From: Nemertoderma westbladi
Lineage: Eukaryota; Animalia; Xenacoelomorpha
Assembly (NCBI GenBank): GCA_032718475.1
Contig: JAUCBJ010008680.1
Location: 1 to 43,260 of the forward strand
DNA length: 43,260 nt
Reading direction: 5' to 3'
Shown here: in pieces, positions 5,366 through 41,164 of the stretch
Layout: each line of letters starts with the position of its first letter
Numbering within the stretch: the stretch's first letter is position 1
Notes under the pieces: generated by a model
Told to the model about the DNA's origin: nothing
The model's input: the letters and a program-made list of their open reading frames with translations, nothing else
Databases searched by the model: none
Translations under genes and position numbers: made by a program

Positions 5366-7181
5366 CAAAGGATTATGCGTGAGATTGTTGACGCTTTATT
5401 CTTTACCAATTAACAGCTGTGTCTGTACTCTCCCGACTGTGGTGCCTACATTTTTATTATTTTATAAAACGGAGTTTAAGAGAATAAAAGATAAATAATA
5501 AGTAACTTGGTAGTTTAAAAATAGAAGGCGGTAACGGTACTCGTTTCCATAGGAACAGTGTGACATTTCTCTAGCAACCGCTGTATACGAAATGTAATTA
5601 TTATTGAAACTTGGGATAAACAACATGACTAGAAATAGTAGATGGTTAGTAGTAGTGACATTGGAGATGATGAGCGTTTCCATAGCAACAAGGTGACCTT
5701 TCCCTAGCAAATACTGGAAATGTAGTGTAATATAATGACCCCACTAGTCGTTTCAGGAATGACAATGACTGACCACCACATTCACTCTCGTGGCCACGGG
5801 CCGGATGCCACAGAACTATATCACACACAGACTGATTAATTGTATAATAGCAGTGCGGTGGCCTGCAAGTCTCAGCCGTCGTGCATGCAGAGTGGTACTG
5901 GGTTTTAGGGACCTACCTATCCTGTGAAGGACCAACAGTTCGACCAACGGAACCCTATCCAGACTGTTTGTGATGGTAGAAAATAAGTTACCTAATGATA
6001 AACGAATTGGACAAATTTATTCCGACAGTATTTCTTTCGTTGTAAAAGGACATCATATGATTATTTATTCTCTACCTACATGATGTATTGCACTCCAACC
6101 CAAGGCGTTCTAAACACTTTGTTTACGAGGCCTTCATCCAATCCACATATCAACAACAGCCTAATAAATGAAAAGTAAAAGATATCCTATTTTCAATCGC
6201 GAAAGCCATAATTTCTGATCCGTGTGTTTATTTACTCGTCTTAAGATTTGATGACAGTTGATTCTATATTTTTTTGCGTTCTCCATTCCGATAAGGCTTT
6301 CTGAGCCATCATTTATAGCCTTTTTTTTCACATTAAAAAATCTCCAAAGCCCTCTTTACAAAGTTGAATTTTTTCACTTCCTAAATTCCTAAATCAACTT
6401 TCAACTTCCTAAATACCTTATACACCCAGTAGTATTCACTTTCTTTCATTTCTTTTAGTGATATAAAGACCTGCCATTAGCTATGTTGGGAGAGCGTTGT
6501 ACTTAACTATTTTCTAAAAGAGTAGCAATTGTGAAAAGTAGCAGCTTTTCATTTCTGTTTCATATGTTCAGTTATCGGCGTTCTATTCTCCTATTCATAA
6601 TTAAAGACTTTAATATTCTAATGATTATGAATATTGATGAAATTATTATCCATATATGAGACTAAATACAAATAGACTGAAATAGACAGACAGACAGATA
6701 GACAAATAGACAGATACTTAAACACGGTAACCACGGTAACCTCGGTGTACGACAAACAATCTTACAACAGTGTTTTGGATTTCATCAGAGCGATGATAAT
6801 TTATCATAATGGTAACATTATATCGATAAACAAAATTACAAATTTTCTTAACTCTACATCAATTACATTTAAATGGAATTGTTCATGGTTTTCAATTTCT
6901 CATAAAGTGATGCATAGTATAAGTATAAAATGATATACAGTATAATATTTGATAAACCTAATTATAACATAGATGTACATTCTATTATGTTAATTACAAC
7001 AAATATTACATTTTGTGAGTTATATAAAAAATGTATCCCTAAGTTTTATATAACTAATGGAGAAGAGGGTATAGTAAAAAAATAGAAACCAATAAATATA
7101 TAACGATATTATGGTGAAGTAAAGGGAATGCTTTAAGCACCTTATAAAATGATTTGATACAGTTAATCATTATATATACAT

Positions 7182-7347
7182 CTATGTAGCTGTAGATTGG
7201 TAATACTTGTTTGTGTTGACATCGTTGGGTTCGGTAGATTGGTGGCTAGGATTTTGATTCGGGTGGACTGGTAACCTCAGGCGATCCCTTCTAGAAAGCA
7301 TCTCCAGGGTGCGGTGGTGTGAGTGAAGACTATCCATGTTATCCAAA
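7182..7347 (-). CDS. cac: Probable terminal coding exon of the Cav2 gene
   Basis: ttctttcag|T TTG GAT AAC...GCT ACA TAG; encodes [54 protein letters not shown]; phase 2 matches. Confidence 0.68.
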
Positions 7348-10300
7348 CTGAAAGAATAATTATTGGAAATAAGTTTGTATATATTAATGTAATTTGTATA
7401 ATATTTTTTTTAATTTAATTTATTGTGATAAAGAAAAGTGATCGGGTCCACGCCACTCTTACTCCCAATGTTGAATACTCGTCGTCTCCATCCAAACATT
7501 TAAATTACGTCCCGTAACGGCTACAGGTTCCGACCTGAATTGAAACAGGTCATCCTCGCAGCAGGCAGCACGATATATTTATGCTTATTTATACACATAT
7601 ATATACATATTTTACCTAATAATGCGGTTGGGAGATAGAATCCGAGGTCTGTAATTATTTAGATTAGGAATTGAGGATTCTGTGCTGCTAGTGTAACTTG
7701 GTAGACTGTTTATTGTCTTCAATCGATTGTCGAGAGCGGCGGTGTTGAGCTGATGAATGTCGGCGAGCCGGTAATGCGGTGGGATGTCGTTCGCTTCGGC
7801 GTCGTTGTCGCTACCAACTGAATCTCCCGGTAAACTATCGACGTTGTTAGAAACAAATTTACCAACATCCTCAATGATTTGTGAGTTCTGTAAAACAAAT
7901 TTACCAACATCCTCAATGATTTGTGAGTTCTGTAAAACAAATTTACCAACATCCTCAATGATTTGTGAGTTCTGTAAAAAAAATTTACCAACATCCTCAA
8001 TGATTTGTGAGTTCTGTAAAACAAATTTACCAACATCCTCAATGATTTGTGAGTTCTGTAAAACAAATTTACCAACATCCTCAATGATTTGTGAGTTCTG
8101 TAAAACAAATTTACCAACATCCTCAATGATTTGTGAGTTCTGTAAAAAAAATTTACCAACATCCTCAATGATTTGTGAGTTCTGTAAAACAAATTTACCA
8201 ACATCCTCAATGATTTGTGAGTTCTGTAAAAAAAATTTACCAACATCCTCAATGATTTGTGAGTTCTGTAAAACAAATTTACCAACATCCTCAATGATTT
8301 GTGAGTTCTGTAAAACAAATTTTTCCAACATCCTCAATGATTTGTGAGTTCTGTAAAACAAATTTACCAACATCCTCAATGATTTGTGAGTTCTGTAAAA
8401 CAAATTTACCAACATCCTCAATGATTTGTGAGTTCTGTAAAACAAATTTACCAACATCCTCAATGATTTGTGAGTTCTGTAAAACAAATTTACTAACATC
8501 CTCAATGATTTGTGAGTTCTGTAAAAAAAATTTACCAACATCCTCAATGATTTGTGAGTTCTGTAAAACAAATTTACCAACATCCTCAATGATTTGTGAG
8601 TTCTGTAAAACAAATTTTTCCAACATCCTCAATGATTTGTGAGTTCTGTAAAACAAATTTACCAACATCCTCAATGATTTGTGAGTTCTGTAAAACAAAT
8701 TTACCACCATCCTCAATGATTTGTGAGTTCTGTAAAACAAATTTACCAACATCCTCAATGATTTGTGAGTTCTGTAAAACAAATTTACTAACATCCTCAA
8801 TGATTTGTGAGTTCTGTAAAACAAATTTACCAACATCCTCAATGATTTGTGAGTTCTGTAAAACAAATTTACCAACATCCTCAATGATTTGTGAGTTCTG
8901 TAAAACAAATTTACCAACATCCTCAATGATTTGTGAGTTCTGTAAAACAAATTTACCAACATCCTCAATGATTTGTGAGTTCTGTAAAACAAATTTACTA
9001 ACATCCTCAATGATTTGTGAGTTCTGTAAAACAAATTTACCAACATCCTCAATGATTTGTGAGTTCTGTAAAACAAATTTACTAACATCCTCAATGATTT
9101 GTGAGTTCTGTAAAACAAATTTACCAACATCCTTAATGATTTGTGAGTTCTGTAAAACAAATTTACTAACATCCTCAATGATTTGTGAGTTCTGTAAAAC
9201 AAATTTACCAACATCCTCAATGATTTGTGAGTTCTGTAAAACAAATTTACCAACATCCTCAATGATTTGTCAGTTCTGTAAAACAAATTTACCAACATCC
9301 TCAATTATTTGTGAGTTCTGTAAAACAAATTTACCAACATCCTCAATGATTTGTGAGTTCTGTAAAACAAATTGACCAACATCCTCAATGATTTGTGAGT
9401 TCTGTAAAACAAATTTACCAACATCCTCAATGATTTGTGAGTTCTGTAAAACAAATTTACCAACATCCTCAATGATTTGTGAGTTCTGTAAAACAAATTT
9501 ACCAACATCCTCAATGATTTGTGAGTTCTGTAAAACAAATTTACCAACATCCTCAATGATTTGTGAGTTCTGTAAAACAAATTTACCAACATCCTCAATG
9601 ATTTGTGAGTTCTGTAAAACAAATTTACCAACATCCTCAATGATTTGTGAGTTCTGTAAAACAAATTTACCAACATCCTCAATGATTTGTGAGTTCTGTA
9701 AAACAAATTTACTAACATCCTCAATGATTTGTGAGTTCTGTAAAACAAATTTACCAACATTCTCAATGATTTGTGAGTTCTGTAAAACAAATTTACCAAC
9801 ATCCTCAATGATTTGTGAGTTCTGTAAAACAAATTTACCAACATCCTCAATGATTTGTGAGTTCTGTAAAACAAATTTACCAACATCCTCAATGATTTGT
9901 GAGTTCTGTAAAACAAATTTACTAACATCCTCAATGATTTGTGAGTTCTGTAAAACAAATTTACCAACATTCTCAATGATTTGTGAGTTCTGTAAAACAA
10001 ATTTACCAACATCCTCAATGATTTGTGAGTTCTGTAAAACAAATTTACTAACATCCTCAATGATTTGTGAGTTCTGTAAAACAAATTTACTAACATCCTC
10101 AATGATTTGTGAGTTCTGTAAAACAAATTTACTAACATCCTCAATGATTTGTGAGTTCTGTAAAACAAATTTACTAACATCCTCAATGATTTGTGAGTTC
10201 TGTAAAACAAATTTACTAACATCCTCAATGATTTGTGAGTTCTGTAAAACAAATTTACCAACATCCTCAATGATTTGTGAGTTCTGTAAAACAAATTTAC

Positions 10301-13300
10301 CAACATCCTCAATGATTTGTGAGTTCTGTAAAACAAATTTACTAACATCCTCAATGATTTGTGAGTTCTGTAAAACAAATTTACCAACATCCTCAATGAT
10401 TTGTGAGTTCTGTAAAACAAATTTACCAACATCCTCAATGATTTGTGAGTTCTGTAAAACAAATTTACTAACATCCTCAATGATTTGTGAGTTCTGTAAA
10501 ACAAATTTACCAACATTCTCAATGATTTGTGAGTTCTGTAAAACAAATTTACCAACATCCTCAATGATTTGTGAGTTCTGTAAAACAAATTTACCAACAT
10601 CCTCAATGATTTGTGAGTTCTGTAAAACAAATTTACTAACATCCTCAATGATTTGTGAGTTCTGTAAAACAAATTTACTAACATCCTCAATGATTTGTGA
10701 GTTCTGTAAAACAAATTTACCAACATCCTCAATGATTTGTGAGTTCTGTAAAACAAATTTACTAACATCCTCAATGATTTGTGAGTTCTGTAAAACAAAT
10801 TTACTAACATCCTCAATGATTTGTGAGTTCTGTAAAACAAATTTACCAACATCCTCAATGATTTGTGAGTTCTGTAAAACAAATTTACCAACATCCTCAA
10901 TGATTTGTGAGTTCTGTAAAACAAATTTACCAACATCCTCAATTATTTGTGAGTTCTGTAAAACAAATTTACCAACATCCTCAATGATTTGTGAGTTCTG
11001 TAAAACAAATTTACCAACATCCTCAATGATTTGTGAGTTCTGTAAAACAAATTTACTAACATCCTCAATGATTTGTGAGTTCTGTAAAACAAATTTACCA
11101 ACATCCTCAATGATTTGTGAGTTCTGTAAAACAAATTTACCAACATCCTCAATGATTTGTGAGTTCTGTAAAACAAATTTACTAACATCCTCAATGATTT
11201 GTGAGTTCTGTAAAACAAATTTACCAACATCCTCAATGATTTGTGAGTTCTGTAAAACAAATTTACCAACATCCTCAATGATTTGTGAGTTCTGTAAAAC
11301 AAATTTACTAACATCCTCAATGATTTGTGAGTTCTGTAAAACAAATTTACCAACATCCTCAATGATTTGTGAGTTCTGTAAAACAAATTTACTAACATCC
11401 TCAATGATTTGTGAGTTCTGTAAAACAAATTTACCAACATTCTCAATGATTTGTGAGTTCTGTAAAACAAATTTACCAACATCCTCAATGATTTGTGAGT
11501 TCTGTAAAACAAATTTACCAACATCCTCAATGATTTGTGAGTTCTGTAAAACAAATTTACCAACATCCTCAATGATTTGTGAGTTCTGTAAAACAAATTT
11601 ACTAACATCCTCAATGATTTGTGAGTTCTGTAAAAAAAATTTACCAACATCCTCAATGATTTGTGAGTTCTGTAAAACAAATTTACCAACATCCTCAATG
11701 ATTTGTGAGTTCTGTAAAACAAATTTTCCAACATCCTCAATGATTTGTGAGTTCTGTAAAACAAATTTACCAACATCCTCAATGATTTGTGAGTTCTGTA
11801 AAACAAATTTACCACCATCCTCAATGATTTGTGAGTTCTGTAAAACAAATTTACCAACATCCTCAATGATTTGTGAGTTCTGTAAAACAAATTTACTAAC
11901 ATCCTCAATGATTTGTGAGTTCTGTAAAACAAATTTACCAACATCCTCAATGATTTGTGAGTTCTGTAAAACAAATTTACCAACATCCTCAATGATTTGT
12001 GAGTTCTGTAAAACAAATTTACCAACATCCTCAATGATTTGTGAGTTCTGTAAAACAAATTTACCAACATCCTCAATGATTTGTGAGTTCTGTAAAACAA
12101 ATTTACTAACATCCTCAATGATTTGTGAGTTCTGTAAAACAAATTTACCAACATCCTCAATGATTTGTGAGTTCTGTAAAACAAATTTACTAACATCCTC
12201 AATGATTTGTGAGTTCTGTAAAACAAATTTACCAACATCCTCAATGATTTGTGAGTTCTGTAAAACAAATTTACTAACATCCTCAATGATTTGTGAGTTC
12301 TGTAAAACAAATTTACCAACATCCTCAATGATTTGTGAGTTCTGTAAAACAAATTTACCAACATCCTCAATGATTTGTCAGTTCTGTAAAACAAATTTAC
12401 CAACATCCTCAATTATTTGTGAGTTCTGTAAAACAAATTTACCAACATCCTCAATGATTTGTGAGTTCTGTAAAACAAATTTACCAACATCCTCAATGAT
12501 TTGTGAGTTCTGTAAAACAAATTTACCAACATCCTCAATGATTTGTGAGTTCTGTAAAACAAATTTACCAACATCCTCAATGATTTGTGAGTTCTGTAAA
12601 ACAAATTTACCAACATCCTCAATGATTTGTGAGTTCTGTAAAACAAATTTACCAACATCCTCAATGATTTGTGAGTTCTGTAAAACAAATTTACCAACAT
12701 CCTCAATGATTTGTGAGTTCTGTAAAACAAATTTACCAACATCCTCAATGATTTGTGAGTTCTGTAAAACAAATTTACCAACATCCTCAATGATTTGTGA
12801 GTTCTGTAAAACAAATTTACTAACATCCTCAATGATTTGTGAGTTCTGTAAAACAAATTTACCAACATCCTCAATGATTTGTGAGTTCTGTAAAACAAAT
12901 TTACCAACATCCTCAATGATTTGTGAGTTCTGTAAAACAAATTTACCAACATCCTCAATGATTTGTGAGTTCTGTAAAACAAATTTACCAACATCCTCAA
13001 TGATTTGTGAGTTCTGTAAAACAAATTTACTAACATCCTCAATGATTTGTGAGTTCTGTAAAACAAATTTACCAACATCCTCAATGATTTGTGAGTTCTG
13101 TAAAACAAATTTACCAACATCCTCAATGATTTGTGAGTTCTGTAAAACAAATTTACTAACATCCTCAATGATTTGTGAGTTCTGTAAAACAGATTTACTA
13201 ACATCCTCAATGATTTGTGAGTTCTGTAAAACAAATTTACTAACATCCTCAATGATTTGTGAGTTCTGTAAAACAAATTTACTAACATCCTCAATGATTT

Positions 13301-16300
13301 GTGAGTTCTGTAAAACAAATTTACTAACATCCTCAATGATTTGTGAGTTCTGTAAAACAAATTTACCAACATCCTCAATGATTTGTGAGTTCTGTAAAAC
13401 AAATTTACCAACATCCTCAATGATTTGTGAGTTCTGTAAAACAAATTTACTAACATCCTCAATGATTTGTGAGTTCTGTAAAACAAATTTACCAACATCC
13501 TCAATGATTTGTGAGTTCTGTAAAACAAATTTACCAACATCCTCAATGATTTGTGAGTTCTGTAAAACAAATTTACTAACATCCTCAATGATTTGTGAGT
13601 TCTGTAAAACAAATTTACTAACATCCTCAATGATTTGTGAGTTCTGTAAAACAAATTTACCAACATCCTCAATGATTTGTGAGTTCTGTAAAACAAATTT
13701 ACTAACATCCTCAATGATTTGTGAGTTCTGTAAAACAAATTTACTAACATCCTCAATGATTTGTGAGTTCTGTAAAACAAATTTACCAACATCCTCAATG
13801 ATTTGTGAGTTCTGTAAAACAAATTTACCAACATCCTCAATGATTTGTGAGTTCTGTAAAACAAATTTACCAACATCCTCAATGATTTGTGAGTTCTGTA
13901 AAACAAATTTACCAACATCCTCAATGATTTGTGAGTTCTGTAAAACAAATTTACTAACATCCTCAATGATTTGTGAGTTCTGTAAAACAAATTTACCAAC
14001 ATCCTCAATGATTTGTGAGTTCTGTAAAACAAATTTACTAACATCCTCAATGATTTGTGAGTTCTGTAAAACAAATTTACCAACATCCTCAATGATTTGT
14101 GAGTTCTGTAAAACAAATTTACTAACATCCTCAATGATTTGTGAGTTCTGTAAAACAAATTTACCAACATCCTCAATGATTTGTGAGTTCTGTAAAACAA
14201 ATTTACCAACATCCTCAATGATTTGTGAGTTCTGTAAAACAAATTTACCAACATCCTCAATGATTTGTGAGTTCTGTAAAACAAATTTACCAACATCCTC
14301 AATGATTTGTGAGTTCTGTAAAACAAATTTACCAACATCCTCAATGATTTGTGAGTTCTGTAAAACAAATTTACCAACATCCTCAATGATTTGTGAGTTC
14401 TGTAAAACAAATTTACCAACATCCTCAATGATTTGTGAGTTCTGTAAAACAAATTTACCAACATCCTCAATGATTTGTGAGTTCTGTAAAACAAATTTAC
14501 CAACATCCTCAATGATTTGTGAGTTCTGTAAAACAAATTTACCAACATCCTCAATGATTTGTGAGTTCTGTAAAACAAATTTACCAACATCCTCAATGAT
14601 TTGTGAGTTCTGTAAAACAAATTTACCAACATCCTCAATGATTTGTGAGTTCTGTAAAACAAATTTACTAACATCCTCAATGATTTGTGAGTTCTGTAAA
14701 ACAAATTTACCAACATCCTCAATGATTTGTGAGTTCTGTAAAACAAATTTACCAACATCCTCAATGATTTGTGAGTTCTGTAAAACAAATTTACCAACAT
14801 CCTCAATGATTTGTGAGTTCTGTAAAACAAATTTACCAACATCCTCAATGATTTGTGAGTTCTGTAAAACAAATTTACTAACATCCTCAATGATTTGTGA
14901 GTTCTGTAAAACAAATTTACCAACATCCTCAATGATTTGTGAGTTCTGTAAAACAAATTTACCAACATCCTCAATGATTTGTGAGTTCTGTAAAACAAAT
15001 TTACTAACATCCTCAATGATTTGTGAGTTCTGTAAAACAAATTTACTAACATCCTCAATGATTTGTGAGTTCTGTAAAACAAATTTACTAACATCCTCAA
15101 TGATTTGTGAGTTCTGTAAAACAAATTTACTAACATCCTCAATGATTTGTGAGTTCTGTAAAACAAATTTACTAACATCCTCAATGATTTGTGAGTTCTG
15201 TAAAACAAATTTACCAACATCCTCAATGATTTGTGAGTTCTGTAAAACAAATTTACCAACATCCTCAATGATTTGTGAGTTCTGTAAAACAAATTTACTA
15301 ACATCCTCAATGATTTGTGAGTTCTGTAAAACAAATTTACCAACATCCTCAATGATTTGTGAGTTCTGTAAAACAAATTTACCAACATCCTCAATGATTT
15401 GTGAGTTCTGTAAAACAAATTTACTAACATCCTCAATGATTTGTGAGTTCTGTAAAACAAATTTACTAACATCCTCAATGATTTGTGAGTTCTGTAAAAC
15501 AAATTTACCAACATCCTCAATGATTTGTGAGTTCTGTAAAACAAATTTACTAACATCCTCAATGATTTGTGAGTTCTGTAAAACAAATTTACTAACATCC
15601 TCAATGATTTGTGAGTTCTGTAAAACAAATTTACCAACATCCTCAATGATTTGTGAGTTCTGTAAAACAAATTTACCAACATCCTCAATGATTTGTGAGT
15701 TCTGTAAAACAAATTTACCAACATCCTCAATGATTTGTGAGTTCTGTAAAACAAATTTACCAACATCCTCAATGATTTGTGAGTTCTGTAAAACAAATTT
15801 ACCAACATCCTCAATGATTTGTGAGTTCTGTAAAACAAATTTACTAACATCCTCAATGATTTGTGAGTTCTGTAAAACAAATTTACCAACATCCTCAATG
15901 ATTTGTGAGTTCTGTAAAACAAATTTACCAACATCCTCAATGATTTGTGAGTTCTGTAAAACAAATTTACTAACATCCTCAATGATTTGTGAGTTCTGTA
16001 AAACAAATTTACCAACATCCTCAATGATTTGTGAGTTCTGTAAAACAAATTTACCAACATCCTCAATGATTTGTGAGTTCTGTAAAACAAATTTACTAAC
16101 ATCCTCAATGATTTGTGAGTTCTGTAAAACAAATTTACCAACATCCTCAATGATTTGTGAGTTCTGTAAAACAAATTTACCAACATCCTCAATGATTTGT
16201 GAGTTCTGTAAAACAAATTTACCAACATCCTCAATGATTTGTGAGTTCTGTAAAACAAATTTACCAACATCCTCAATGATTTGTGAGTTCTGTAAAACAA

Positions 16301-19300
16301 ATTTACTAACATCCTCAATGATTTGTGAGTTCTGTAAAACAAATTTACCAACATCCTCAATGATTTGTGAGTTCTGTAAAACAAATTTACCAACATCCTC
16401 AATGATTTGTGAGTTCTGTAAAACAAATTTACCAACATCCTCAATGATTTGTGAGTTCTGTAAAACAAATTTACCAACATCCTCAATGATTTGTGAGTTC
16501 TGTAAAACAAATTTACCAACATCCTCAATGATTTGTGAGTTCTGTAAAACAAATTTACTAACATCCTCAATGATTTGTGAGTTCTGTAAAACAAATTTAC
16601 CAACATCCTCAATGATTTGTGAGTTCTGTAAAACAAATTTACCAACATCCTCAATGATTTGTGAGTTCTGTAAAACAAATTTACCAACATCCTCAATGAT
16701 TTGTGAGTTCTGTAAAACAAATTTACCAACATCCTCAATGATTTGTGAGTTCTGTAAAACAAATTTACTAACATCCTCAATGATTTGTGAGTTCTGTAAA
16801 ACAAATTTACTAACATCCTCAATGATTTGTGAGTTCTGTAAAACAAATTTACTAACATCCTCAATGATTTGTGAGTTCTGTAAAACAAATTTACCAACAT
16901 CCTCAATGATTTGTGAGTTCTGTAAAACAAATTTACCAACATCCTCAATGATTTGTGAGTTCTGTAAAACAAATTTACTAACATCCTCAATGATTTGTGA
17001 GTTCTGTAAAACAAATTTACCAACATCCTCAATGATTTGTGAGTTCTGTAAAACAAATTTACCAACATCCTCAATGATTTGTGAGTTCTGTAAAACAAAT
17101 TTACCAACATCCTCAATGATTTGTGAGTTCTGTAAAACAAATTTACTAACATCCTCAATGATTTGTGAGTTCTGTAAAACAAATTTACTAACATCCTCAA
17201 TGATTTGTGAGTTCTGTAAAACAAATTTACCAACATCCTCAATGATTTGTGAGTTCTGTAAAACAAATTTACTAACATCCTCAATGATTTGTGAGTTCTG
17301 TAAAACAAATTTACTAACATCCTCAATGATTTGTGAGTTCTGTAAAACAAATTTACTAACATCCTCAATGATTTGTGAGTTCTGTAAAACAAATTTACTA
17401 ACATCCTCAATGATTTGTGAGTTCTGTAAAACAAATTTACCAACATCCTCAATGATTTGTGAGTTCTGTAAAACAAATTTACCAACATCCTCAATGATTT
17501 GTGAGTTCTGTAAAACAAATTTACTAACATCCTCAATGATTTGTGAGTTCTGTAAAACAAATTTACTAACATCCTCAATGATTTGTGAGTTCTGTAAAAC
17601 AAATTTACTAACATCCTCAATGATTTGTGAGTTCTGTAAAACAAATTTACTAACATCCTCAATGATTTGTGAGTTCTGTAAAACAAATTTACTAACATCC
17701 TCAATGATTTGTGAGTTCTGTAAAACAAATTTACCAACATCCTCAATGATTTGTGAGTTCTGTAAAACAAATTTACCAACATCCTCAATGATTTGTGAGT
17801 TCTGTAAAACAAATTTACTAACATCCTCAATGATTTGTGAGTTCTGTAAAACAAATTTACCAACATCCTCAATGATTTGTGAGTTCTGTAAAACAAATTT
17901 ACCAACATCCTCAATGATTTGTGAGTTCTGTAAAACAAATTTACTAACATCCTCAATGATTTGTGAGTTCTGTAAAACAAATTTACCAACATCCTCAATG
18001 ATTTGTGAGTTCTGTAAAACAAATTTACCAACATCCTCAATGATTTGTGAGTTCTGTAAAACAAATTTACCAACATCCTCAATGATTTGTGAGTTCTGTA
18101 AAACAAATTTACTAACATCCTCAATGATTTGTGAGTTCTGTAAAACAAATTTACTAACATCCTCAATGATTTGTGAGTTCTGTAAAACAAATTTACCAAC
18201 ATCCTCAATGATTTGTGAGTTCTGTAAAACAAATTTACTAACATCCTCAATGATTTGTGAGTTCTGTAAAACAAATTTACTAACATCCTCAATGATTTGT
18301 GAGTTCTGTAAAACAAATTTACCAACATCCTCAATGATTTGTGAGTTCTGTAAAACAAATTTACCAACATCCTCAATGATTTGTGAGTTCTGTAAAACAA
18401 ATTTACCAACATCCTCAATGATTTGTGAGTTCTGTAAAACAAATTTACCAACATCCTCAATGATTTGTGAGTTCTGTAAAACAAATTTACCAACATCCTC
18501 AATGATTTGTGAGTTCTGTAAAACAAATTTACTAACATCCTCAATGATTTGTGAGTTCTGTAAAACAAATTTACCAACATCCTCAATGATTTGTGAGTTC
18601 TGTAAAACAAATTTACCAACATCCTCAATGATTTGTGAGTTCTGTAAAACAAATTTACTAACATCCTCAATGATTTGTGAGTTCTGTAAAACAAATTTAC
18701 CAACATCCTCAATGATTTGTGAGTTCTGTAAAACAAATTTACCAACATCCTCAATGATTTGTGAGTTCTGTAAAACAAATTTACTAACATCCTCAATGAT
18801 TTGTGAGTTCTGTAAAACAAATTTACCAACATCCTCAATGATTTGTGAGTTCTGTAAAACAAATTTACCAACATCCTCAATGATTTGTGAGTTCTGTAAA
18901 ACAAATTTACCAACATCCTCAATGATTTGTGAGTTCTGTAAAACAAATTTACTAACATCCTCAATGATTTGTGAGTTCTGTAAAACAAATTTACTAACAT
19001 CCTCAATGATTTGTGAGTTCTGTAAAACAAATTTACCAACATCCTCAATGATTTGTGAGTTCTGTAAAACAAATTTACTAACATCCTCAATGATTTGTGA
19101 GTTCTGTAAAACAAATTTACTAACATCCTCAATGATTTGTGAGTTCTGTAAAACAAATTTACTAACATCCTCAATGATTTGTGAGTTCTGTAAAACAAAT
19201 TTACCAACATCCTCAATGATTTGTGAGTTCTGTAAAACAAATTTACCAACATCCTCAATGATTTGTGAGTTCTGTAAAACAAATTTACCAACATCCTCAA

Positions 19301-22300
19301 TGATTTGTGAGTTCTGTAAAACAAATTTACCAACATCCTCAATGATTTGTGAGTTCTGTAAAACAAATTTACCAACATCCTCAATGATTTGTGAGTTCTG
19401 TAAAACAAATTTACCAACATCCTCAATGATTTGTGAGTTCTGTAAAACAAATTTACCAACATCCTCAATGATTTGTGAGTTCTGTAAAACAAATTTACCA
19501 ACATCCTCAATGATTTGTGAGTTCTGTAAAACAAATTTACCAACATCCTCAATGATTTGTGAGTTCTGTAAAACAAATTTACCAACATCCTCAATGATTT
19601 GTGAGTTCTGTAAAACAAATTTACCAACATCCTCAATGATTTGTGAGTTCTGTAAAACAAATTTACCAACATCCTCAATGATTTGTGAGTTCTGTAAAAC
19701 AAATTTACCAACATCCTCAATGATTTGTGAGTTCTGTAAAACAAATTTACCAACATCCTCAATGATTTGTGAGTTCTGTAAAACAAATTTACCAACATCC
19801 TCAATGATTTGTGAGTTCTGTAAAACAAATTTACCAACATCCTCAATGATTTGTGAGTTCTGTAAAACAAATTTACCAACATCCTCAATGATTTGTGAGT
19901 TCTGTAAAACAAATTTACCAACATCCTCAATGATTTGTGAGTTCTGTAAAACAAATTTACCAACATCCTCAATGATTTGTGAGTTCTGTAAAACAAATTT
20001 ACCAACATCCTCAATGATTTGTGAGTTCTGTAAAACAAATTTACCAACATCCTCAATGATTTGTGAGTTCTGTAAAACAAATTTACCAACATCCTCAATG
20101 ATTTGTGAGTTCTGTAAAACAAATTTACCAACATCCTCAATGATTTGTGAGTTCTGTAAAACAAATTTACCAACATCCTCAATGATTTGTGAGTTCTGTA
20201 AAACAAATTTACCAACATCCTCAATGATTTGTGAGTTCTGTAAAACAAATTTACCAACATCCTCAATGATTTGTGAGTTCTGTAAAACAAATTTACCAAC
20301 ATCCTCAATGATTTGTGAGTTCTGTAAAACAAATTTACCAACATCCTCAATGATTTGTGAGTTCTGTAAAACAAATTTACCAACATCCTCAATGATTTGT
20401 GAGTTCTGTAAAACAAATTTACCAACATCCTCAATGATTTGTGAGTTCTGTAAAACAAATTTACCAACATCCTCAATGATTTGTGAGTTCTGTAAAACAA
20501 ATTTACCAACATCCTCAATGATTTGTGAGTTCTGTAAAACAAATTTACCAACATCCTCAATGATTTGTGAGTTCTGTAAAACAAATTTACCAACATCCTC
20601 AATGATTTGTGAGTTCTGTAAAACAAATTTACTAACATCCTCAATGATTTGTGAGTTCTGTAAAACAAATTTACCAACATCCTCAATGATTTGTGAGTTC
20701 TGTAAAACAAATTTACCAACATCCTCAATGATTTGTCAGTTCTGTAAAACAAATTTACTAACATCCTCAATGATTTGTGAGTTCTGTAAAACAAATTTAC
20801 TAACATCCTCAATGATTTGTGAGTTCTGTAAAACAAATTTACCAACATCCTCAATGATTTGTGAGTTCTGTAAAACAAATTTACCAACATCCTCAATGAT
20901 TTGTGAGTTCTGTAAAACAAATTTACCAACATCCTCAATGATTTGTGAGTTCTGTAAAACAAATTTACCAACATCCTCAATGATTTGTGAGTTCTGTAAA
21001 ACAAATTTACCAACATCCTCAATGATTTGTGAGTTCTGTAAAACAAAGCAAGATTGTAGATGTTGTACTTGGTATCTAATTTTGTTGGTTTATTTGGTTT
21101 CCACAACAACGCAACGTGTTTGTGTCTGTGGGTATTTAGCTCCCGCGTGTCTTTAATTACCGAAATCATTTTACGTGACTTAACATTGTGGGATATAATT
21201 TAAATTATACATCTATCTATCATCAAGGATACGATTTGATAAAAACTATTTTGAATTTAATGAAAGTTATTTATTGGTTATTATAATATTTTTCCAATCA
21301 AATATTAAAACACAACAGCACATGCTGCCATGCTGGTATGGAGAATTAATATCCCAAATATTATCCGAAAGTAACAACAAACTTCTACTTTTCCAAGAAC
21401 TTCTACTACTTCTACTTTCTCAAGAATTTCTACTACTTCTACTTTTCCCAAGAACTTCTACTACTTTTACTTTCCCAAGAACTTCTACTACTTCTACTTT
21501 CTCAAGAACTTCTACTACTTCTACTTTCTCAAGAACTTCTACTACTTCTACTTTCTCAAGAACTTCTACTACTTCTACTTTCTCAAGAACTTCTACTACT
21601 TCTACTTTTCCCAAGAACTTCTACTACTTCTACTTTCTCAAGAACTTCTACTACTTCTACTTTCTCAAGAACTTCTACTACTTCTACTTTCTCAAGAACT
21701 TCTACTACTTCTACTTTCTCAAGAACTTCTACTACTTCTACTTTCTCAAGAACTTCTACTACTTCTACTTTCTCAAGAACTTCTACTACTTCTACTTTCT
21801 CAAGAACTTCTACTACTTCTACTTTCTCAAGAACTTCTACTACTTCTACTTTCTCAAGAACTTCTACTACTTCTACTTTCTCAAGAACTTCTACTACTTC
21901 TACTTTCTCAAGAACTTCTACTACTTCTACTTTTCCCAAGAACTTCTACTACTTCTACTTTCCCAAGAACTTCTACTACTTCTACTTTTCCCAAGAAATT
22001 CTACTACTTCTACTTTCTCAAGAACTTATACTACTTCTAATTTCCCAAGAACTTCTACTACTTCTACTTTTCCCACAAACTTATACTACGTCTACTTTTC
22101 CCAAGAACTTATACTACTTCTATTTTTCTCAAGAACTTCTACTACTTCTACTTTTTCAAGAACTTCTACTACTTCTACTTTCCCAAGAACTTCTACTACT
22201 TCTACTTTCTCAAGAACTTCTACTACTTCTACTTTCTCAAGAACTTCTACTACTTCTACTTTCTCAAGAACTTCTACTACTTCTACTTTCCCAAGAACTT

Positions 22301-25300
22301 CTACTACTTCTACTTTTCCCAAGAAATTCTACTACTTCTACTTTCTCAAGAACTTATACTACTTCTAATTTCCCAAGAACTTCTACTACTTCTACTTTTC
22401 CCACAAACTTATACTACGTCTACTTTTCCCAAGAACTTCTACTACTTCTATTTTTCTCAAGAACTTCCACTACCTCTACTTTTCCCAAGAACTTCTACTA
22501 CTTCTACTTTTCCCACAAACTTATACTACGTCTACTTTTCCCAAGAACTTCTATTACTTCTATTTTTCCCAAGAACTTCCACTACTTCTACTTTCCCAAT
22601 AACGTTTCCGACGGAGCAGCGGCCTATAAATGTTGGCACTAAATGCAGAAATAACCAAAGATGCTAAATTACTAAGTGAAACATAATAATGAAAGTTATA
22701 AATGGGATTTCGAATTTGTCACTAAGATAACCACCGAAACCACTAACCTTATCATTAGCCTTACTGAGTTTATTTTTTTCCCTGAAGGAGTCAATCAACA
22801 ACAACACAGTAAATATCTTTCCACAGGTCATCTTTGGAAATCTTAATTCTGAAATAAATATAACACAGGCTTTAGCTTTCTCAGAGTCGTTTTTTATAGT
22901 AGACATTTCCCAAAAAAAATATATAGTCCTTACTAACCTTAATTGGGGGTAGTAACAAGTTATTTTAGCTTTTTTGACTACCCTTCCTTAGGTGATAGTA
23001 ACAAATCCAGTTCAATCATAGCTTTAGCTTTCTCACTAACCTTCCTTGTGGTAGTAACACATACTCCACCTACTGGCTCCAGAAGTCGAGGAAATCCTGT
23101 CAAGTACCTAACTGATCTAGACTTTGCTGATGACTTAGGAGTACTCTCAGAATCACTAGAGGGAGCCCAACGGCTCCTCAGCTCATTAGAACATGCTGCT
23201 TCTAGTGTTGGTCTTTTTATTAACTCCAGAAAGACCAAAATTCTGACAGTTAACTTTGAAAGTCCTCAGCAAGTCTCTGATCGGATGAGCATAAGCTCAA
23301 AGGATGGTATGCTTGAGCATGTGGACGACTTCTGTTACCTGGGATCATGGATCCGGAAGTCAGGTGAGGACCTTCGAATACGTAAGGGAAAGGCATGGGC
23401 AGCCTTGAATAGGCTCTCCAGGATTTGGAAGTCACCGAGAATTAATCGGAAACTTAAGGTCCGATTATTTAGAGCAGCAGTAGTTCCAGTACTCCTCTAC
23501 GGGAGTCCATGCTGGGCTCTAACTGCTGAGGACACCAAATCTCTGGATGGCACATTCACAAGAATGCTACGCCGGGTTCATTGTGTCAAGTACAATGCGC
23601 ACATCTCCAACCAGACACTATATAACATTGGAGGTGTCTCATTGGTTCCCCCAAGCTTGACACTAGAACAAAATCGCCTCCGCTTTGCAGGACATTGCTT
23701 TCGCCGTGAGGACCAGCCAGTGCATAATCTTGTACTTTTGCAGCCTCATGGAGTGAATAAGCATGGTGGACAGCCCATGACTTTCTTGAGACGCATCTTA
23801 AAGGACACTGGCCTTAAAGATGCGGATGATCTAGCAAATGTCATGGGTGATAGGGAGTTGTGGCGGTGCAATTTTGTTAACAAGCCGGCACAGCATTCTT
23901 AAAAATGCAGCTGCAATTCAGCATGCCGATCCTAGTAGTAGTAGTAGTAGTGGTAGTAACAAATCCAGTTCAATAATAGCTTTAGCTTTCTCGCTAAATT
24001 TCCTTAGGTGGTAGTAACAAATCCAGTTCAATCATAGCTTTAGCTTTCTCACTAACCTTCCTTGTGGTAGTAACAAGTCCAGTTCAATCATAGCTTTAGC
24101 TTTCTCACTACCCTTCCTTAGGTGGTAGTAACAAATCCAGTTCAATCATAGCTTTAGCTTTCTCACTAACCTTCCTTAGGTGGTAGTAACAAGTCCAGTT
24201 CAATCATAGCTTTAGTTTTCTCACTAACCTTCCTTGGGTGGTAGTAACAAATCCAGTTCAATCATAGCTTTAGCTTTCTCACTACCCTTCCTTAGGTGGT
24301 AGTAACAAATCCAGTTCAATAATAGCTTTAGCTTTCTCACTACCCTTCCTTAGGTGGTAGTAACAAATCCAGTTCAATCATAGCTTTAGCTTTCTCACTA
24401 CCCTTCCTTATGTGGTAGTAACAAATCCAGTTCAATCATAGCTTTAGCTTTCTCACTAACCTTCCTTAGGTGGTAGTAACAAATCCAGTTCAATCATAGC
24501 TTTAGCTTTCTCACTAACCTTCCTTAGGTGGTAGTAACAAATCCAGTTCAATCATAGCTTTAGCTTTCTCACAAACCTACCTTAGGTGGTAGTAATAAAT
24601 CACGTTCAATCATAGCTTTAGCTTTCTCACTAACTTTCCTTTGGTTGTAGTAACAAATAGTAACAAATACAGTTCAATCATAGCTTTAGCTTTCTCACCA
24701 GCCTTCCTTAGGTGGTAGTAACAAATCCAGTTCAATCATAGCTTTAGCTTTCTCACTACCCTTCCTTAGGTGGTAGTAACAAATCCAGTTCAATCATAGC
24801 TTTAGCTTTCTCACTAACCTTCCTTGGGTGTTAGTAACAAATCCAGTTCAATAATAGCTTTAGCTTTCTCACTAACCTTCCTTAGGTGGTAGTAACAAAT
24901 CCAGTTCAATCATAGCTTTAGCTTTCTCACTACCCTTCCTTAGGTGGTAGTAACAAATCCAGTTCAGTAATAGGTTTAGCTTTCTCACTAACCTTCCTTA
25001 GGTGGTAGTAACAAATCCAGTTCAATCATAGCTTTAGCTTTCTCACTAACCTTCCTTAGGTGGTAGTAACAAATCCAGTTGAGTAATAACTTTAGCTTTC
25101 TCACTACCCTTCCTTAGGTGGTAGTAACAAATCCAGTTCAATCATAGCTTTAGCTTTCTCACTACCCTTCCTTAGGTGATAGTAACAAATCCAGTTCAAT
25201 CATAGCTTTAGCTTTCTCACTACCCTTCCTTAGGTGTTAGTAACAAATCCAGTTCAATAATAGCTTTAGCTTTCTCACTACCCTTCCTTGGGTGTTAGTA

Positions 25301-28300
25301 ACAAATCCAGTTCAATAATAGCTTTAGCTTTCTCACTAACCTTCCTTAGGTGGTAGTAACAAATCCAGTTCAATAATAGCTTTAGCTTTCTCACTAACCT
25401 TCCTTAGGTGGTAGTAACAAATCCAGTTCAATAATAGCTTTAGCTTTCTCACTAACCTTCCTTAGGTGGTAGTAACAAATCTAGTTCAATCATAGCTTTA
25501 GCTTTCTCACTAACCTTCCTTAGGTGGTAGTAACAAATCTAGTTCAATAATAGCTTTAGCTTTCTCACTAACCTTCCTTAGGTGGTAGTAACAAATCCAG
25601 TTCAATAATAGCTTTAGCTTTCTCACTAACCTTCCTTAGGTGGTAGTAACAAATCTAGTTCAATCATAGCTTTAGCTTTCTCACTAACCTTCCTTAGGTG
25701 GTAGTAACAAATCCAGTTCAATAATAGCTTTGGCTTTCTCACTAACCTTCCTTAGGTGGTAGTAACAAATCCAGTTCAATCATAGCTTTAGCTTTCTCAC
25801 TACCCTTCCTTAGGTGTTAGTAACAAATCCAGTTCAATAATAGCTTTAGCTTTCTCACTAACCTTCCTTAGGTGGTAGTAACAAATCCAGTTCAATCATA
25901 GCTTTAGCTTTCTCACTAACCTTCCTTAGGTGGTAGTAACAAATCCAGTTGAGTAATAACTTTAGCTTTCTCACTACCCTTCCTTAGGTGGTAGTAACAA
26001 ATCCAGTTCAATCATAGCTTTAGCTTTCTCACTACCCTTCCTTAGGTGATAGTAACAAATCCAGTTCAATCATAGCTTTAGCTTTCTCACTACCCTTCCT
26101 TAGGTGTTAGTAACAAATCCAGTTCAATAATAGCTTTAGCTTTCTCACTAACCTTCCTTAGGTGGTAGTAACAAATCCAGTTCAATCATAGCTTTAGCTT
26201 TCTCACTACCCTTCCTTAGGTGGTAGTAACAAATCCAGTTCAATAATAGCTTTAGCTTTCTCACTAACCTTCCTTAGGTGGTAGTAACAAATCCAGTTCA
26301 ATCATAGCTTTAGCTTTCTCACTAACCTTCCTTAGGTGGTAGTAACAAATCCAGTTCAATCATAGCTTTAGCTTTCTCACTAACCTTCCTTAGGTGGTAG
26401 TAACAAATCCAGTTCAATCATAGCTTTAGCTTTCTCACTACCCTTCCTTGGGTGTTAGTAACAAATCCAGTTCAATAATAGCTTTAGCTTTCTCACTAAC
26501 CTTCCTTAGGTGGTAGTAACAAATCCAGTTCAATAATAGCTTTAGCTTTCTCACTAACCTTCCTTAGGTGGTAGTAACAAATCCAGTTCAATCATAGCTT
26601 TAGCTTTCTCACTAACCTTCCTTAGGTGGTAGTAACAAATCCAGTTCAATCATAGCTTTAGCTTTCTCACTAACCTTCCTTGGGTGTTAGTAACAAATCC
26701 AGTTCAATAATAGCTTTAGCTTTCTCACTAACCTTCCTTAGGTGGTAGTAACAAATCCAGTTCAATAATAGCTTTAGCTTTCTCACTAACCTTCCTTAGG
26801 TGGTAGTAACAAATCTAGTTTAATCATAGCTTTAGCTTTCTCACTAACCTTCCTTAGGTGGTAGTAACAAATCCAGTTCAATAATAGCTTTGGCTTTCTC
26901 ACTAACCTTCCTTAGGTGGTAGTAACAAATCCAGTTCAATCATAGCTTTAGCTTTCTCACTACCCTTCCTTGGGTGTTAGTAACAAATCCAGTTCAATAA
27001 TAGCTTTAGCTTTTTCACTAACCTTCCTTAGGTGGTAGTAACAAATCCAGTTCAATCATAGCTTTAGCTTTCTCACTACCCTTCCTTAGGTGGTAGTAAC
27101 AAATCCAGTTCAATCATAGCTTTAGCTTTCTCACTAACCTTCCTTAGGTGGTAGTAACAAATCCAGTTCAATCATAGCTTTAGCTTTCTCACTAACCTTC
27201 CTTAGGTGGTAGTAACAAATCCAGTTCAATCATAGCTTTAGCTTTCTCACTAACCTTCCTTAGGTGGTAGTAACAAATCCAGTTCAATCATAGCTTTAGC
27301 TTTCTCACTAACCTTCCTTAGGTGGTAGTAACAAATCCAGTTCAATCATAGCTTTAGCTTTCTCACTAACCTTCCTTAGGTGGTAGTAACAAATCCAGTT
27401 CAATCATAGCTTTAGCTTTCTCACTAACCTTCCTTAGGTGGTAGTAACAAATCCAGTTCAATCATAGCTTTAGCTTTCTCACTAACCTTCCTTAGGTGGT
27501 AGTAACAAATCCAGTTCAATAATAGCTTTAGCTTTCTCACTAACCTTCCTTAGGTGGTAGTAACAAATCCAGTTCAATCATAGCTTTAGCTTTCTCACTA
27601 CCCTTCCTTAGGTGGTAGTAACAAATCCAGTTCAATCATAGCTTTAGCTTTCTCACTAACCTTCCTTAGGTGGTAGTAACAAATCCAGTTCAATCATAGC
27701 TTTAGCTTTCTCACTAACCTTCCTTAGGTGGTAGTAACAAATCCAGTTCAATCATAGCTTTAGCTTTCTCACTAACCTTCCTTAGGTGGTAGTAACAAAT
27801 CCAGTTCAATCATAGCTTTAGCTTTCTCACTACCCTTCCTTAGGTGGTAGTAACAAATCCAGTTCAATCATAGCTTTAGCTTTCTCACTACCCTTCCTTA
27901 GGTGGTAGTAACAAATCCAGTTCAATCATAGCTTTAGCTTTCTCACTAACCTTCCTTAGGTGGTAGTAACAAATCCAGTTCAATCATAGCTTTAGCTTTC
28001 TCACTAACCTTCCTTAGGTGGTAGTAACAAATCCAGTTCAATCATAGCTTTAGCTTTCTCACTAACCTTCCTTAGGTGGTAGTAACAAATCCAGTTCAAT
28101 CATAGCTTTAGCTTTCTCACTAACCTTCCTTAGGTGGTAGTAACAAATCCAGTTCAATCATAGCTTTAGTTTTCTCGCGACTGTTAAGTTTATTTATTTT
28201 TAGAAGTTCGATTATATCGGAACGCAGTTCTTCATCTCTATCATCGCCAGTCTTCTCGTCTCTTTTGGTGTAAATCTCTAAAGACAACCTCACCAATGCA

Positions 28301-30564
28301 AACAACGTTGTTTTGAAATGTACCTAAATAGTAATAATACATTACATATATATTAAATTACCTTACCCATCTTTGGAACGTATAATACATCTTAGGTATC
28401 ACTTTATAAATTTTAACCTCTTTGTTGTACATTAATTACCATGCAATAAATTATTATTATTCCAAAATTGTAACATTACTCAACGCCGTTAGTATTAACA
28501 GCGAGTTGTTATTTAGCACTTTACAACTTTAGAGGACATTACAGCATTGTATTGGCCTGTACATTTAGTATTGTATTTGGTGTTATTGTTTACGTGGTAA
28601 CCCATGACGGCGTTAAGTAATGTCCACTAAGGGGACATTACTTAACGCCGTCATTGGATACCACGTAAACAATAGGTGGAAATTTGCCTGACAGCCAGAT
28701 AGGCCTACTGCATTACCTACCGGTAGGCGGGGTATAGCTATTAATAACCAGTAGGGCCTAGCTATATTATTATAACATGGCTCCAAACGCCACCATAAAT
28801 ATAAGCTAACTTATTTATAACATAATTTATGTCATTTTTACAATTATTTATACAGCAACTAATATAATTTGTGCAGTTTCTATCACTTATAATATATATA
28901 CAATCATTTCGTAATGTTAAAATTTTGGAATAAAACTACATACATACTTGTTGCAAAGTACTTTACAGTGTTCTGATCCTCGTGGCTTTATTTTCACTCA
29001 CTCACTAACGTTCGTTCGTGTAACAAAGCCACTCGGATCATCACACTGTAAAGTGCTACTTTACACACAAGTATGTAAATAGTAAATTATTTCATATCAT
29101 ACAGCTGACAAATAACTACATGTAGATAGCTGCGTTATGTATAAAGATTATATTTTAGAATAATTATTTTATACGTTTTCAATAGTTTAACAATTTATTA
29201 TTTAATTTGATTAAATGTCGATAGACTTTGTTATATCCAGTTGTAATAAATATATAATGGTAAATTAATATTTGAATACATTATAATAAAAATATATGAT
29301 ATATAATGGTAAATAAATATACAATGGTAAATAAATATATAATGGTAACTAATTATATTATGGTAAATAAATATAATGGTTAATAAATACATAATGGTAA
29401 ATTTATATTTGAATACATAATAATAAAAATATATGAATATATAATTGTAAATTAATAAATAATGGTAAATACGTATATAATGGAAAATTAATATATAATA
29501 TAATCATAAAAATATATGAATTTATATGAATATATAATTATAAAAATATATGAATATATAATTATAAAAATATATGAATATATATGAATTTATAATTATA
29601 AAAATATATGTATATAGTGGTAAATAAATATCTAATGGTAAATGAATATTTTAAACGAAATATTGAATATATTTTGGTAAATGAAAATTTCAATTCATTC
29701 ATGAAAATTAAATAATTTAAGTTTATAAATGGGTCTGTATAAAAAAGGATAATATATAAATAAAAAGGGGTCTGTATATCTTAAACAAGATGATTCGAGA
29801 TGAATATAAATTCAAACTGTTTCACTTCGGCCGGTTGTCGTTACCATAACTACCGGTATAGTTTGATTACCTTGTCGTCGTCCATTACAGGCATGTTCAT
29901 CCGTATTAATCTGCGATATGCCAACCTCCAGGGGCACTTTATACCAAAACCTAATGGCGGGATCAAAATCTTGAGAAGTTCAAAGGCGTCCGTGTATAGA
30001 ATGCGACCCCTGTATGGGAGGGATGCAAATATGTAGATTATTTGGGGGGAGTTAGTTACCTACTAGTGTGTATAATTGTATAATTAAATACTCAGCCAAC
30101 ACTACACCCATAGGTACCTACTGACATTATATTACACTGATAAAAGTTTACACTCAATTTATTTACTCAATGAATATTTGGTTCTACATACACATACCCT
30201 CAATCACTCCTTATCAGTCTGCAGTCTTCTATTGTATCTTACCTGCAATAAGCCTATAAAAACTTCCGAATACATTTTGGCCCCTGATACACCGTAGTAC
30301 AAAGTACACTCAACTCAACTTCTTCTTCCTATTTTTCAGAATATATACCATATAATATTACAACTTTCGTTGGGCACAGCTTTGTAAAGTCGGCAATGAC
30401 GTCCAGGTGGGATCGAACATTCCCGATGTAACTTACGTGGCATTGGGATCGTAATCCCCCCAAAGTTTCACGAATTCGTCTAGATGATGGGGACCCAGAA
30501 TCGATTTGTCTCGAGTTAGATATTCGAAATTATCCATTATTACAGCCACGAACAGATTCAGCAT
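7182..30564 (-). CDS. cac: Voltage-gated calcium channel alpha-1 subunit, Cav2 type, 3' part. Spliced model: join(30437..30564, 29871..30009, 28125..28323, 22748..22848, 7616..7887, 7463..7534, 7182..7347). The 5' exons are not found in this window.
   Basis: Manual translation gives [107 protein letters not shown]...[33 protein letters not shown]... This is the IVS6 end, GPHH, EF-hand, pre-IQ and IQ region of Cav channels. MLNLF/NFEY and [11 protein letters not shown] are Cav2-like. All junctions are GT-AG with matching phases; total 1077 nt = 358 aa + stop. Confidence 0.93.
7463..7534 (-). CDS. cac: Probable 72-nt symmetric (phase 2-2) C-tail exon
   Basis: tttcaattcag|G TCG GAA...TGG GA|gtaaga; open reading (R)[23 protein letters not shown](D); GC-richer than the flanking 81- and 115-nt introns. 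Confidence 0.6.
7616..7887 (-). CDS. cac: Cav2 distal C-tail exon (272 nt if the last acceptor of the 42-bp array is used)
   Basis: ttttacag|AAC TCA CAA ATC...ATT AG|gtaaaa; [22 protein letters not shown]...SPNRII is open; phase 0 matches the IQ exon. There is no conserved motif, so the assignment rests on phase, openness and splice sites. Confidence 0.75.
7851..21047. repeat. 42-bp satellite, ~314 copies (ACAAATTTACCAACATCCTCAATGATTTGTGAGTTCTGTAAA); the unit spans a Cav2 intron acceptor and exon start on the minus strand
   Basis: First to last acceptor is 21035-7887 = 13148 nt = 313x42 + 2, with two +1 T insertions near 8321 and 8617. Confidence 0.99.
21381..22598. repeat. ~27-bp intronic minisatellite (CAAGAACTTCTACTACTTCTACTTTCT), ~45 copies, degenerate toward the ends
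   Basis: Direct tandem copies with internal CTACTT sub-repeats; G-poor on the plus strand. Confidence 0.96.
22748..22848 (-). CDS. cac: Cav2 exon (101 nt): degenerate IQ-domain region
   Basis: tatttcag|AA TTA AGA...GAT AAG|gttagt; encodes (E)[33 protein letters not shown], which aligns by eye with the Cav2 'TVGKIYA..LI.E..R' motif; phase 1 matches the previous exon. Confidence 0.88.
22977..28176. repeat. 59-bp satellite, ~73 copies (GGTGGTAGTAACAAATCCAGTTCAATCATAGCTTTAGCTTTCTCACTAACCTTCCTTA-type unit); the unit spans the Cav2 exon end and donor on the minus strand; interrupted by an RTE
   Basis: Tandem copies at 23950-28176 plus 1-2 copies left of the RTE; a degenerate copy at ~22930-22980. 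Confidence 0.97.
23060..23949 (+). mobile_element. 5'-truncated RTE-clade non-LTR retrotransposon (RT C-terminal half) with (TAG)n tail and 12-bp TSD
   Basis: [36 protein letters not shown]; stop at 23902; tail tagtagtagtagtagtag; GTGGTAGTAACA at both 23048-23059 and 23950-23961. Confidence 0.92.
28125..28323 (-). CDS. cac: Cav2 exon (199 nt): pre-IQ region; its 3' end is the seed of the 59-bp satellite
   Basis: tatttag|GTA CAT TTC...AAG GAA G|gttagt; encodes [66 protein letters not shown]. Confidence 0.92.
28584..28674. repeat. Inverted repeat with 42-bp arms (2 mismatches) and a 7-nt loop; MITE-like
   Basis: tattgtttacgtggtaacccatgacggcgttaagtaatgtcc pairs with ggacattacttaacgccgtcattggataccacgtaaacaata. 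Confidence 0.85.
28941..29077. repeat. Imperfect fold-back element (~137 bp), MITE-like
   Basis: Nested inverted pairs: tacatacttg/caagtatgta, actttacagtgt/acactgtaaagt, tgatcc/ggatca, gtggcttt/aaagccac. Confidence 0.8.
29240..29690. repeat. Degenerate AT-rich low-complexity repeat (AATATATAATGGTAAAT-like)
   Basis: Recurrent ataatggtaaat and aaaatatatgaat motifs; almost no C. Confidence 0.75.
29871..30009 (-). CDS. cac: Cav2 exon (139 nt): EF-hand / PPLGFG region
   Basis: catacag|G GGT CGC ATT...GAC AAG|gtaatc; encodes [46 protein letters not shown]; enters phase 2, exits phase 0. Confidence 0.95.
30437..30564 (-). CDS. cac: Cav2 exon (128 nt): end of IVS6 and GPHH motif
   Basis: cggtag|ATG CTG AAT CTG TTC...GCC AC|gtaagt; encodes [42 protein letters not shown](T). 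Confidence 0.96.
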
Positions 30565-30783
30565 CTACCGTTCAGAATAATTATTTATTACTTGGGAGAA
30601 AAGTATAAATTGTATTCTTCAATTGTTACTTTTTCGCTCGGATATACCCCAAAATCGGGAGAAAAAGTTTCACTTTTTCAAATTAATTTTTGATAGGAAA
30701 AAAAGTAACCCATTGATTTTATTGCATTGATTTCATTGCATCGATTGCATTGATTTTACTTTTATATTATGTATATATAATGA

Positions 30784-40935: not shown

Positions 40936-41164
40936 GTATAAGATACTATGACACCCGGCCATGGTCACCCGTAGCCCATCATTACCATCCATTTCTAGTA
41001 CTCTGTCCAATCAGATGCCACTATTTCAACCTTTTGCGGTGGTCGTTATTATTTCAACCAATCAGATGTCAGCATTTCATCCGTAACCATGGCAACTTCT
41101 CAAGTTCCCGCTTATTCCGCTAGAGGCGTTATTAGTCACCCAGCGCTAGTACTCCGTCCAATCA

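Follow-up and report, generated by a model that had tools for sequence, protein, structure and literature searches.

Two consecutive introns of a predicted Cav2-like channel gene in Nemertoderma westbladi contain large tandem arrays whose units are copies of exon edges joined to their splice signals. One array repeats the donor edge of the pre-IQ exon and the other the acceptor edge of the exon after next, and together they are a very large pair of "mirage" minisatellites without demonstrated function. This class has already been named and published, and the finding is not new in kind but distinctive in size. We place the probability at about 0.75 that the arrays are neutral junction-spanning minisatellites, tolerated through the choice of exon-proximal splice sites. 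The abundance of large tandem arrays, which make up 48% of the window (the whole 43,260-nt stretch of contig JAUCBJ010008680.1 that was analyzed), supports this neutral reading.

Only the 3′ end of the Cav2-like gene lies in the window, where six predicted minus-strand exons with GT-AG ends (A to F; Table 1) join into one frame of 334 codons. Phases match across the five junctions, each bounded by GT and AG, and with the first donor and last acceptor chosen, the joined exons contain a single stop, codon 335 of 335. Skipping exon D or exon E breaks this frame. The exon boundaries are predictions from frame, GT-AG signals, and homology rather than from RNA, and those of exon E are without homology support. 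Pfam models for Ion_trans and GPHH matched exons A and B and Ca_chan_IQ matched exons C and D, with the curated cutoff passed by B and C only. Human Cav2.2, Cav2.1, and Cav2.3 were the three best PDB sequences for exons A and B, ahead of all Cav1 chains, which agrees with the Cav2 identity proposed in the initial annotation and points to a Cav2 (non-L-type) alpha1 subunit rather than Cav1 or Nav, judging from best matches and Pfam domains. Identity to other Cav2 proteins is 65 to 74% in exon A and 38 to 48% in exons C and D. Searches by tblastn with two other Cav2 proteins gave matches in exons A to D only and none in the 12.7 kb upstream of exon A, a region that contains retrotransposon frames. 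Exon C (28126 to 28323, minus strand) is about 10 residues longer than in other Cav2 proteins, the extra residues lying at and just upstream of the repeated part. In one sequencing run whose RNA nature is a guess, 0.15 of the words of 28177 to 30700 were present, close to the 0.13 expected from exons alone; the same single candidate run gave 0 contigs on exon E, and these results speak neither for nor against expression or a particular site choice.

Table 1. Predicted exons, tandem arrays, and inserted element in the 3′ part of the Cav2-like gene
Feature	Position	Strand	Description
Exon A (predicted)	30437..30564	-	End of domain IV S6 and EF-hand-like region, Cav2-like alpha1 subunit
Exon B (predicted)	29871..30009	-	GPHH region, PF16905 E 3e-15
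Exon C (predicted)	28125..28323	-	199 nt, pre-IQ; PF08763 E 8e-7; donor AAG/GTTAGT
58-bp donor-spanning array	23950..28176	-	72.7 copies as assembled, 95% matches (TRF)
LINE fragment	23059..23949	+	Truncated non-LTR retrotransposon, 891 bp; RVT_1 E 1.9e-5, below Pfam cutoff
Tail of 58-bp array	22869..23058	-	Part unit, full unit, decayed 45-nt unit, 49-nt spacer, 14-nt copy
Exon D (predicted)	22748..22848	-	101 nt, IQ region; PF08763 E 0.008; array on each side
27-bp array	21381..22603		44.7 copies; wholly intronic, in intron D-E with the 42-bp array; internal control
42-bp acceptor-spanning array	7851..21047	-	314 TTTTACAG acceptors, 21035 down to 7887; 314.2 copies as assembled, 98% matches (TRF)
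Exon E (predicted)	7616..7887	-	272 nt with last acceptor; C-tail; no Pfam match
Exon E2 (possible, optional)	7463..7534	-	72 nt, AG/GT bounded, frame kept; no homology support
Exon F (predicted), coding part	7182..7347	-	Terminates in TAG

The donor-side array lies in the intron between exons C and D, and its minus-strand unit consists of the final 52 nt of exon C followed by GTTAGT. The initial annotation had described this composition correctly; the length of 59 bp given there did not stand, as 69 of the 72 units measure 58 bp. The first unit is exon C's own edge, and the array consists of 72 units and one partial unit. The copy belonging to exon C differs from the unit consensus at one base, 25 distinct unit types are present, and divergence increases away from exon C (rho of 0.46 across 72 nonindependent units). 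The LINE fragment interrupts one 58-bp unit and runs antisense to the gene; the 11-bp direct repeat that flanks it is likely a target-site duplication. Beyond this insertion, the tail of the array finishes with 14 nt identical to the unit start, which stop 20 nt short of the exon D acceptor. The idea that the 49-nt spacer in this tail is a further decayed unit was rejected for lack of significance (225 of 2000 shuffles).

On the other side of exon D, in the intron between exons D and E, the 42-bp unit joins the TTTGTTTTACAG acceptor to the opening 30 nt of exon E. The array has 313 full units, each with TACAG at its end, and then the copy that belongs to exon E. TRF and unit identity thus agree with the initial annotation that both large arrays are copies of an exon edge and its splice signal, including the composition given there for the 42-bp unit. 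Its placement of the arrays in consecutive introns of one gene also held, with exon D, which it had lacked, between them; one complete copy of each repeated exon remains and the A-to-F frame is intact, and the 13,148 bp added by the 42-bp array and 4,175 bp added by the 58-bp array match the approximately 17 kb it had given. A local origin had been proposed as well, and is favored by the copying of adjoining exon edges; no 14-mer match of either unit was found outside the arrays within the 43-kb window.

Units of the 42-bp array fall into 12 sequence types, with 200 of 313 identical and a mean divergence of 0.86%. The array is young or freshly homogenized, and for this reason the open frame of exons E and F is weak proof of continued use. 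The identity of so many units, and a long block that recurs at a lag of 74 units, would also fit real arrays whose copy numbers were inflated by assembly. The pattern of variants makes such inflation highly unlikely. Rare variants recur in register at the 74-unit lag, yet the duplicated blocks differ from each other, which points to genuine unequal exchange and away from read error. There are only two indel units in the 42-bp array, both carrying the identical change, and the 58-bp array has its many unit types, its gradient of divergence, and its LINE fragment. Random read error would not produce such unit-variant patterns. In the 42-bp array, all but one of the 23 rare variants fall within units 187 to 311, the exon-near end. 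A polarity rule anchored at the exon was considered and rejected: the 58-bp array is most uniform beside exon C, and the 42-bp array has its rare variants at the exon-near end.

In frame with exon E, the 42-bp unit amounts to 14 codons. A giant coding exon or coding VNTR was nevertheless ruled out by three units with an in-frame TGA (at 20741, 12383, and 9275), two frameshifted units of 43 bp (at 8645 and 8350), and the finding that 11 of 314 acceptors are in frame. The 10 distinct substitutions in the array, a small sample, comprise 2 synonymous, 7 nonsynonymous, and 1 stop change out of a possible 25, 93, and 8, and appear as expected without coding selection, of which they give no sign. In 91 of the 313 units (7888 to 21035, minus strand), a variant makes GTTAGT 21 nt after the acceptor, the same hexamer as in the exon C and D donors; the result is a weak frame-keeping microexon pattern (AG-21 nt-GTTAGT; donor match 6 of 9) that occurs in none of the last 15 units. 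On the plus strand, the region of this array (7775 to 21153) contains up to 3,926 stop-free codons. This array is an annotation trap, in that thousands of open-frame codons on both strands could mislead gene callers.

The two arrays present 361 exact decoy splice sites, 48 AAG/GTTAGT donors and 313 acceptors, or 383 decoys in all with the 22 further donor copies altered to AAG/GGTAGT. The figure of approximately 390 in the initial annotation was slightly high. Since none of the 48 extra AAG/GTTAGT donors keeps a stop-free frame, and since an open, in-phase exon results from acceptors 304 to 314 only, the last 11 of 314, both arrays are probably intronic. Frame logic and precedent predict that the first donor and the last acceptor are used and that the arrays are spliced out, in keeping with the tolerance proposed at the outset, as the frame is kept only by exon-proximal choices. 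RNA structure did not distinguish the arrays from shuffled sequence. Energies of duplexes between the two arrays that would loop out exon D fell within the range of the shuffles, of which 74, 78, and 130 out of 200 were as strong, and folds of three units that could mask the decoys were not stronger than shuffles (108, 156, and 130 of 200).

Several points count against the neutral reading: 3′ scanning would favor the 5′-most acceptor, the published precedents compared have 2 to 25 copies, not 313, locus L001 (one of three informative loci) is without the C-D intron, and no further Cav exon turned up in the 12.7 kb upstream of exon A. The 5′-most acceptor retains the original intron context, with 14 of 20 pyrimidines upstream compared to 12 of 20 for the last acceptor, and its use would lead to a stop at codon 100 of the exon. 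The channel would then end after 7 repeat units, and the gene could be a truncated, decaying, or dispensable paralogue in which relaxed selection let the arrays grow. Retention of the native upstream intron, the position of that first stop, the divergence of C-terminal exons C and D, and the fact that no exon further upstream lies in the window are consistent with this scenario. It is difficult to reconcile with five GT-AG junctions in matching phases, six exons that make one open frame, and the closeness of exon A to other Cav2 proteins, and in the precedents the exon-proximal site is the one used. We regard use of the first acceptor as distinctly unlikely.

A leaky acceptor array would be a different outcome, in which the last 11 acceptors add 14-residue blocks to the C-tail, upstream ones truncate or degrade the product, and array length tunes isoforms or dose. 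For such a leak speak the unit length of 42, a multiple of 3, the in-frame and stop-free acceptors 304 to 314, and the weak microexon pattern in 91 units. Human CBS intron 13 and 6-16 also use the nearest two pseudo-donors (PMC1557585). TACAG is kept in all 313 extra acceptors, but this invariance is weak evidence, as there are only 10 distinct substitutions. The frameshifted units lie close to the exon end, at distances of just 11 and 18 units, and have not been displaced from it, the variants look unselected in the coding frame, and the donor array yields stops only and includes 22 copies with an altered donor GT position. A leak is thus unlikely, and slightly less likely still is its use as a satellite-based dial, in which the 13-kb acceptor array would form an in-frame ladder from its last 11 acceptors just after the IQ region, upstream acceptors would truncate, and length would set the isoform mix. 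The length-tunable control offered as one possibility in the initial annotation found no support here, given variants that look unselected and no special RNA structure.

If the arrays are neutral junction-spanning minisatellites, each would have been seeded by a chance local duplication of an exon edge with its splice signal, through slippage or microhomology. The 7-bp sequence TTTGTTT occurs in the intron end and again 42 bp later in exon E, exactly at the edges of the acceptor unit, and microhomology-seeded duplication can explain this unit, as the motif positions suggest. Ordinary minisatellite turnover by unequal exchange could then have amplified the seed, as indicated by the 74-unit block duplication and the polarized variants. 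Survivorship may set the placement at junctions. Duplications inside exons would be purged upon expansion or frame shift, and a duplication carrying a splice site would leave one complete exon and turn its copies into intron. Judging from precedent, the arrays would be removed whole, with the cell continuing to use the site beside the intact exon.

Two of the four arrays in the gene touch no junction. The 27-bp array in intron D-E is separated from the exon D donor by 145 nt and from the first acceptor by 346 nt, and intron B-C contains a degenerate AT-rich repeat; neither was in the initial annotation. Under a survivorship null in which duplications were placed randomly and those within exons were purged, 7 to 23% of surviving duplications spanned a junction, depending on unit length and model. 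The probability of two or more junctional arrays among 3 or 4 was 0.015 to 0.23 (12 values), and is to be read with the window itself having been chosen for showing the junction-array pattern. Because of this range and the two nonjunctional arrays, the common rule proposed for the two large arrays held as a description, in that both straddle a junction, and was not shown as a special rule. A special rule of junction placement is neither shown nor excluded, and a modest real enrichment is compatible with the null (lowest P of 0.015).

With the arrays collapsed, the introns would be short, approximately 89 nt for C-D and 489 nt for D-E. Eleven short metagenome loci were compared, nine of them distant Cav genes and two (L003 and L004) short chance matches, and a junction array was absent from all 11. 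Sequence searches with exon B returned 3 distant matches, and those with exon C returned none or a single unrelated repeat protein. Three loci were informative for the C-D intron position. At the same codon and phase, L008 has a donor and an acceptor and L002 has a donor, and L001 is without an intron. For the D-E position the comparison gave only a similar phase-0 site in L001, where a likely donor is 29 codons away from the IQ exon's conserved T, compared to 27 codons in this gene. The C-D position is therefore common to distant animal Cav2 genes and the intron predates the repeat, so that the introns are likely old and were enlarged rather than created by repeats. Intron gain by tandem genomic duplication was rejected on the same comparison with L008 and L002.

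Close relatives of these arrays are known. Two amphioxus reports describe "mirage" minisatellites in Adh3, the globins BflGb6 and BflGb9, troponin C, and PGBD5 (PMC3087553, PMC3902484). As in the arrays described here, the units (10 to 160 bp) lie across exon-intron boundaries, 5′ and 3′ boundaries are both affected, several arrays can occur per gene, many but not all copies keep AG/GT, and there is concerted evolution with decayed edge copies. PGBD5, for example, has two arrays within one gene, of 2 to 7 copies (PMC3902484). Copy number differs, at 3 to 6 in the globins and 2 to 7 in PGBD5 compared to approximately 72 and 313 here, and a 13-kb single array and a LINE insertion are found here, unlike in the amphioxus mirages described. 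Reverse transcription-PCR indicated that amphioxus mirages leave regular splicing undisturbed (PMC3087553), and normal splicing and allelic length variation have been demonstrated there, whereas normal splicing is a prediction for the present arrays. The recurrent route of satellite birth suggested in the initial annotation is thus real, and had already been described and named (PMC3087553, PMC3902484, PMC1557585).

Human minisatellites in F7, CBS, 6-16, LMNB2, and PDGF resemble the 58-bp array, in that the first unit crosses the junction and further copies of the donor extend into the intron. There are 25 pseudo-sites in 6-16, 15 to 20 in CBS intron 13, 10 to 15 in LMNB2, and 16 to 18 in PDGF; only the most upstream donor of the 37-bp VNTR in F7 intron 7 is used, and 6-16 and CBS additionally use two pseudo-sites (PMC1557585). 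These human arrays have 5 to 25 copies and tested site use, and the F7 unit combines 4 exon and 33 intron nt, compared to 52 and 6 here. On the acceptor side, CBS 844ins68 is a duplication of an intron/exon junction in which the distal site is favored and normal mRNA is made (PMC2630376). This matches the behavior predicted for the 42-bp array, with one extra copy compared to 313. Tandem repeats at exon-intron boundaries also recur in human duplicated genes at genome scale, where they can create new introns (PMC2812944); the C-D intron position here, in contrast, is common to distant animals. A literature search that took in few subscription papers and no supplements returned no report of this locus, of an array of hundreds of acceptors, or of a genome-wide enrichment test.

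The significance of the pair lies in its scale, with 313 extra acceptors compared to 2 to 25 copies in the published examples compared, plus a donor array on the far side of the 101-nt exon. Should the gene be expressed and normally spliced, exon-proximal choice would withstand hundreds of identical competitors over 13 kb. Even if the array is silent, picking out the last acceptor among 314 near-identical ones would be an extreme natural test of exon definition versus 3′ scanning.

Other repeats and mobile-element sequences were observed across the window. Upstream of exon A, a 512-codon non-LTR reverse-transcriptase frame (34354 to 35889, minus strand; RVT_1 E 3e-20) is accompanied by two plus-strand frames that had no Pfam match (32278 to 33060 and 30784 to 31602), and these three frames probably lie inside a large intron. 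Farther out are a complex array at 36531 to 37356 with 13-bp and 30-bp subunits and higher periods of 56, 69, 82, and 108 bp, a retrotransposon pol frame of 705 codons in which RT, RNase H, and integrase domains were recognized (38850 to 40964, minus strand), and two copies of a 94- to 103-bp sequence with 87 to 94% identity (41162 to 41418). Intron B-C contains palindromic stretches at 28584 to 28674 (92% over 91 bp) and 28935 to 29083 (73% over 158 bp), possibly remnants of small DNA transposons. A 22-bp array of 57 copies (4105 to 5366) lies 1.8 kb past the predicted stop, where no junction is predicted. The plus-strand open frame at 958 to 2730 is 591 codons long, encodes several Cys/His clusters, and had no Pfam match; its atlas neighbors are CCHC zinc-knuckle proteins at 0.75 to 0.86, a lead only, and it may be the gag-like frame of a mobile element.
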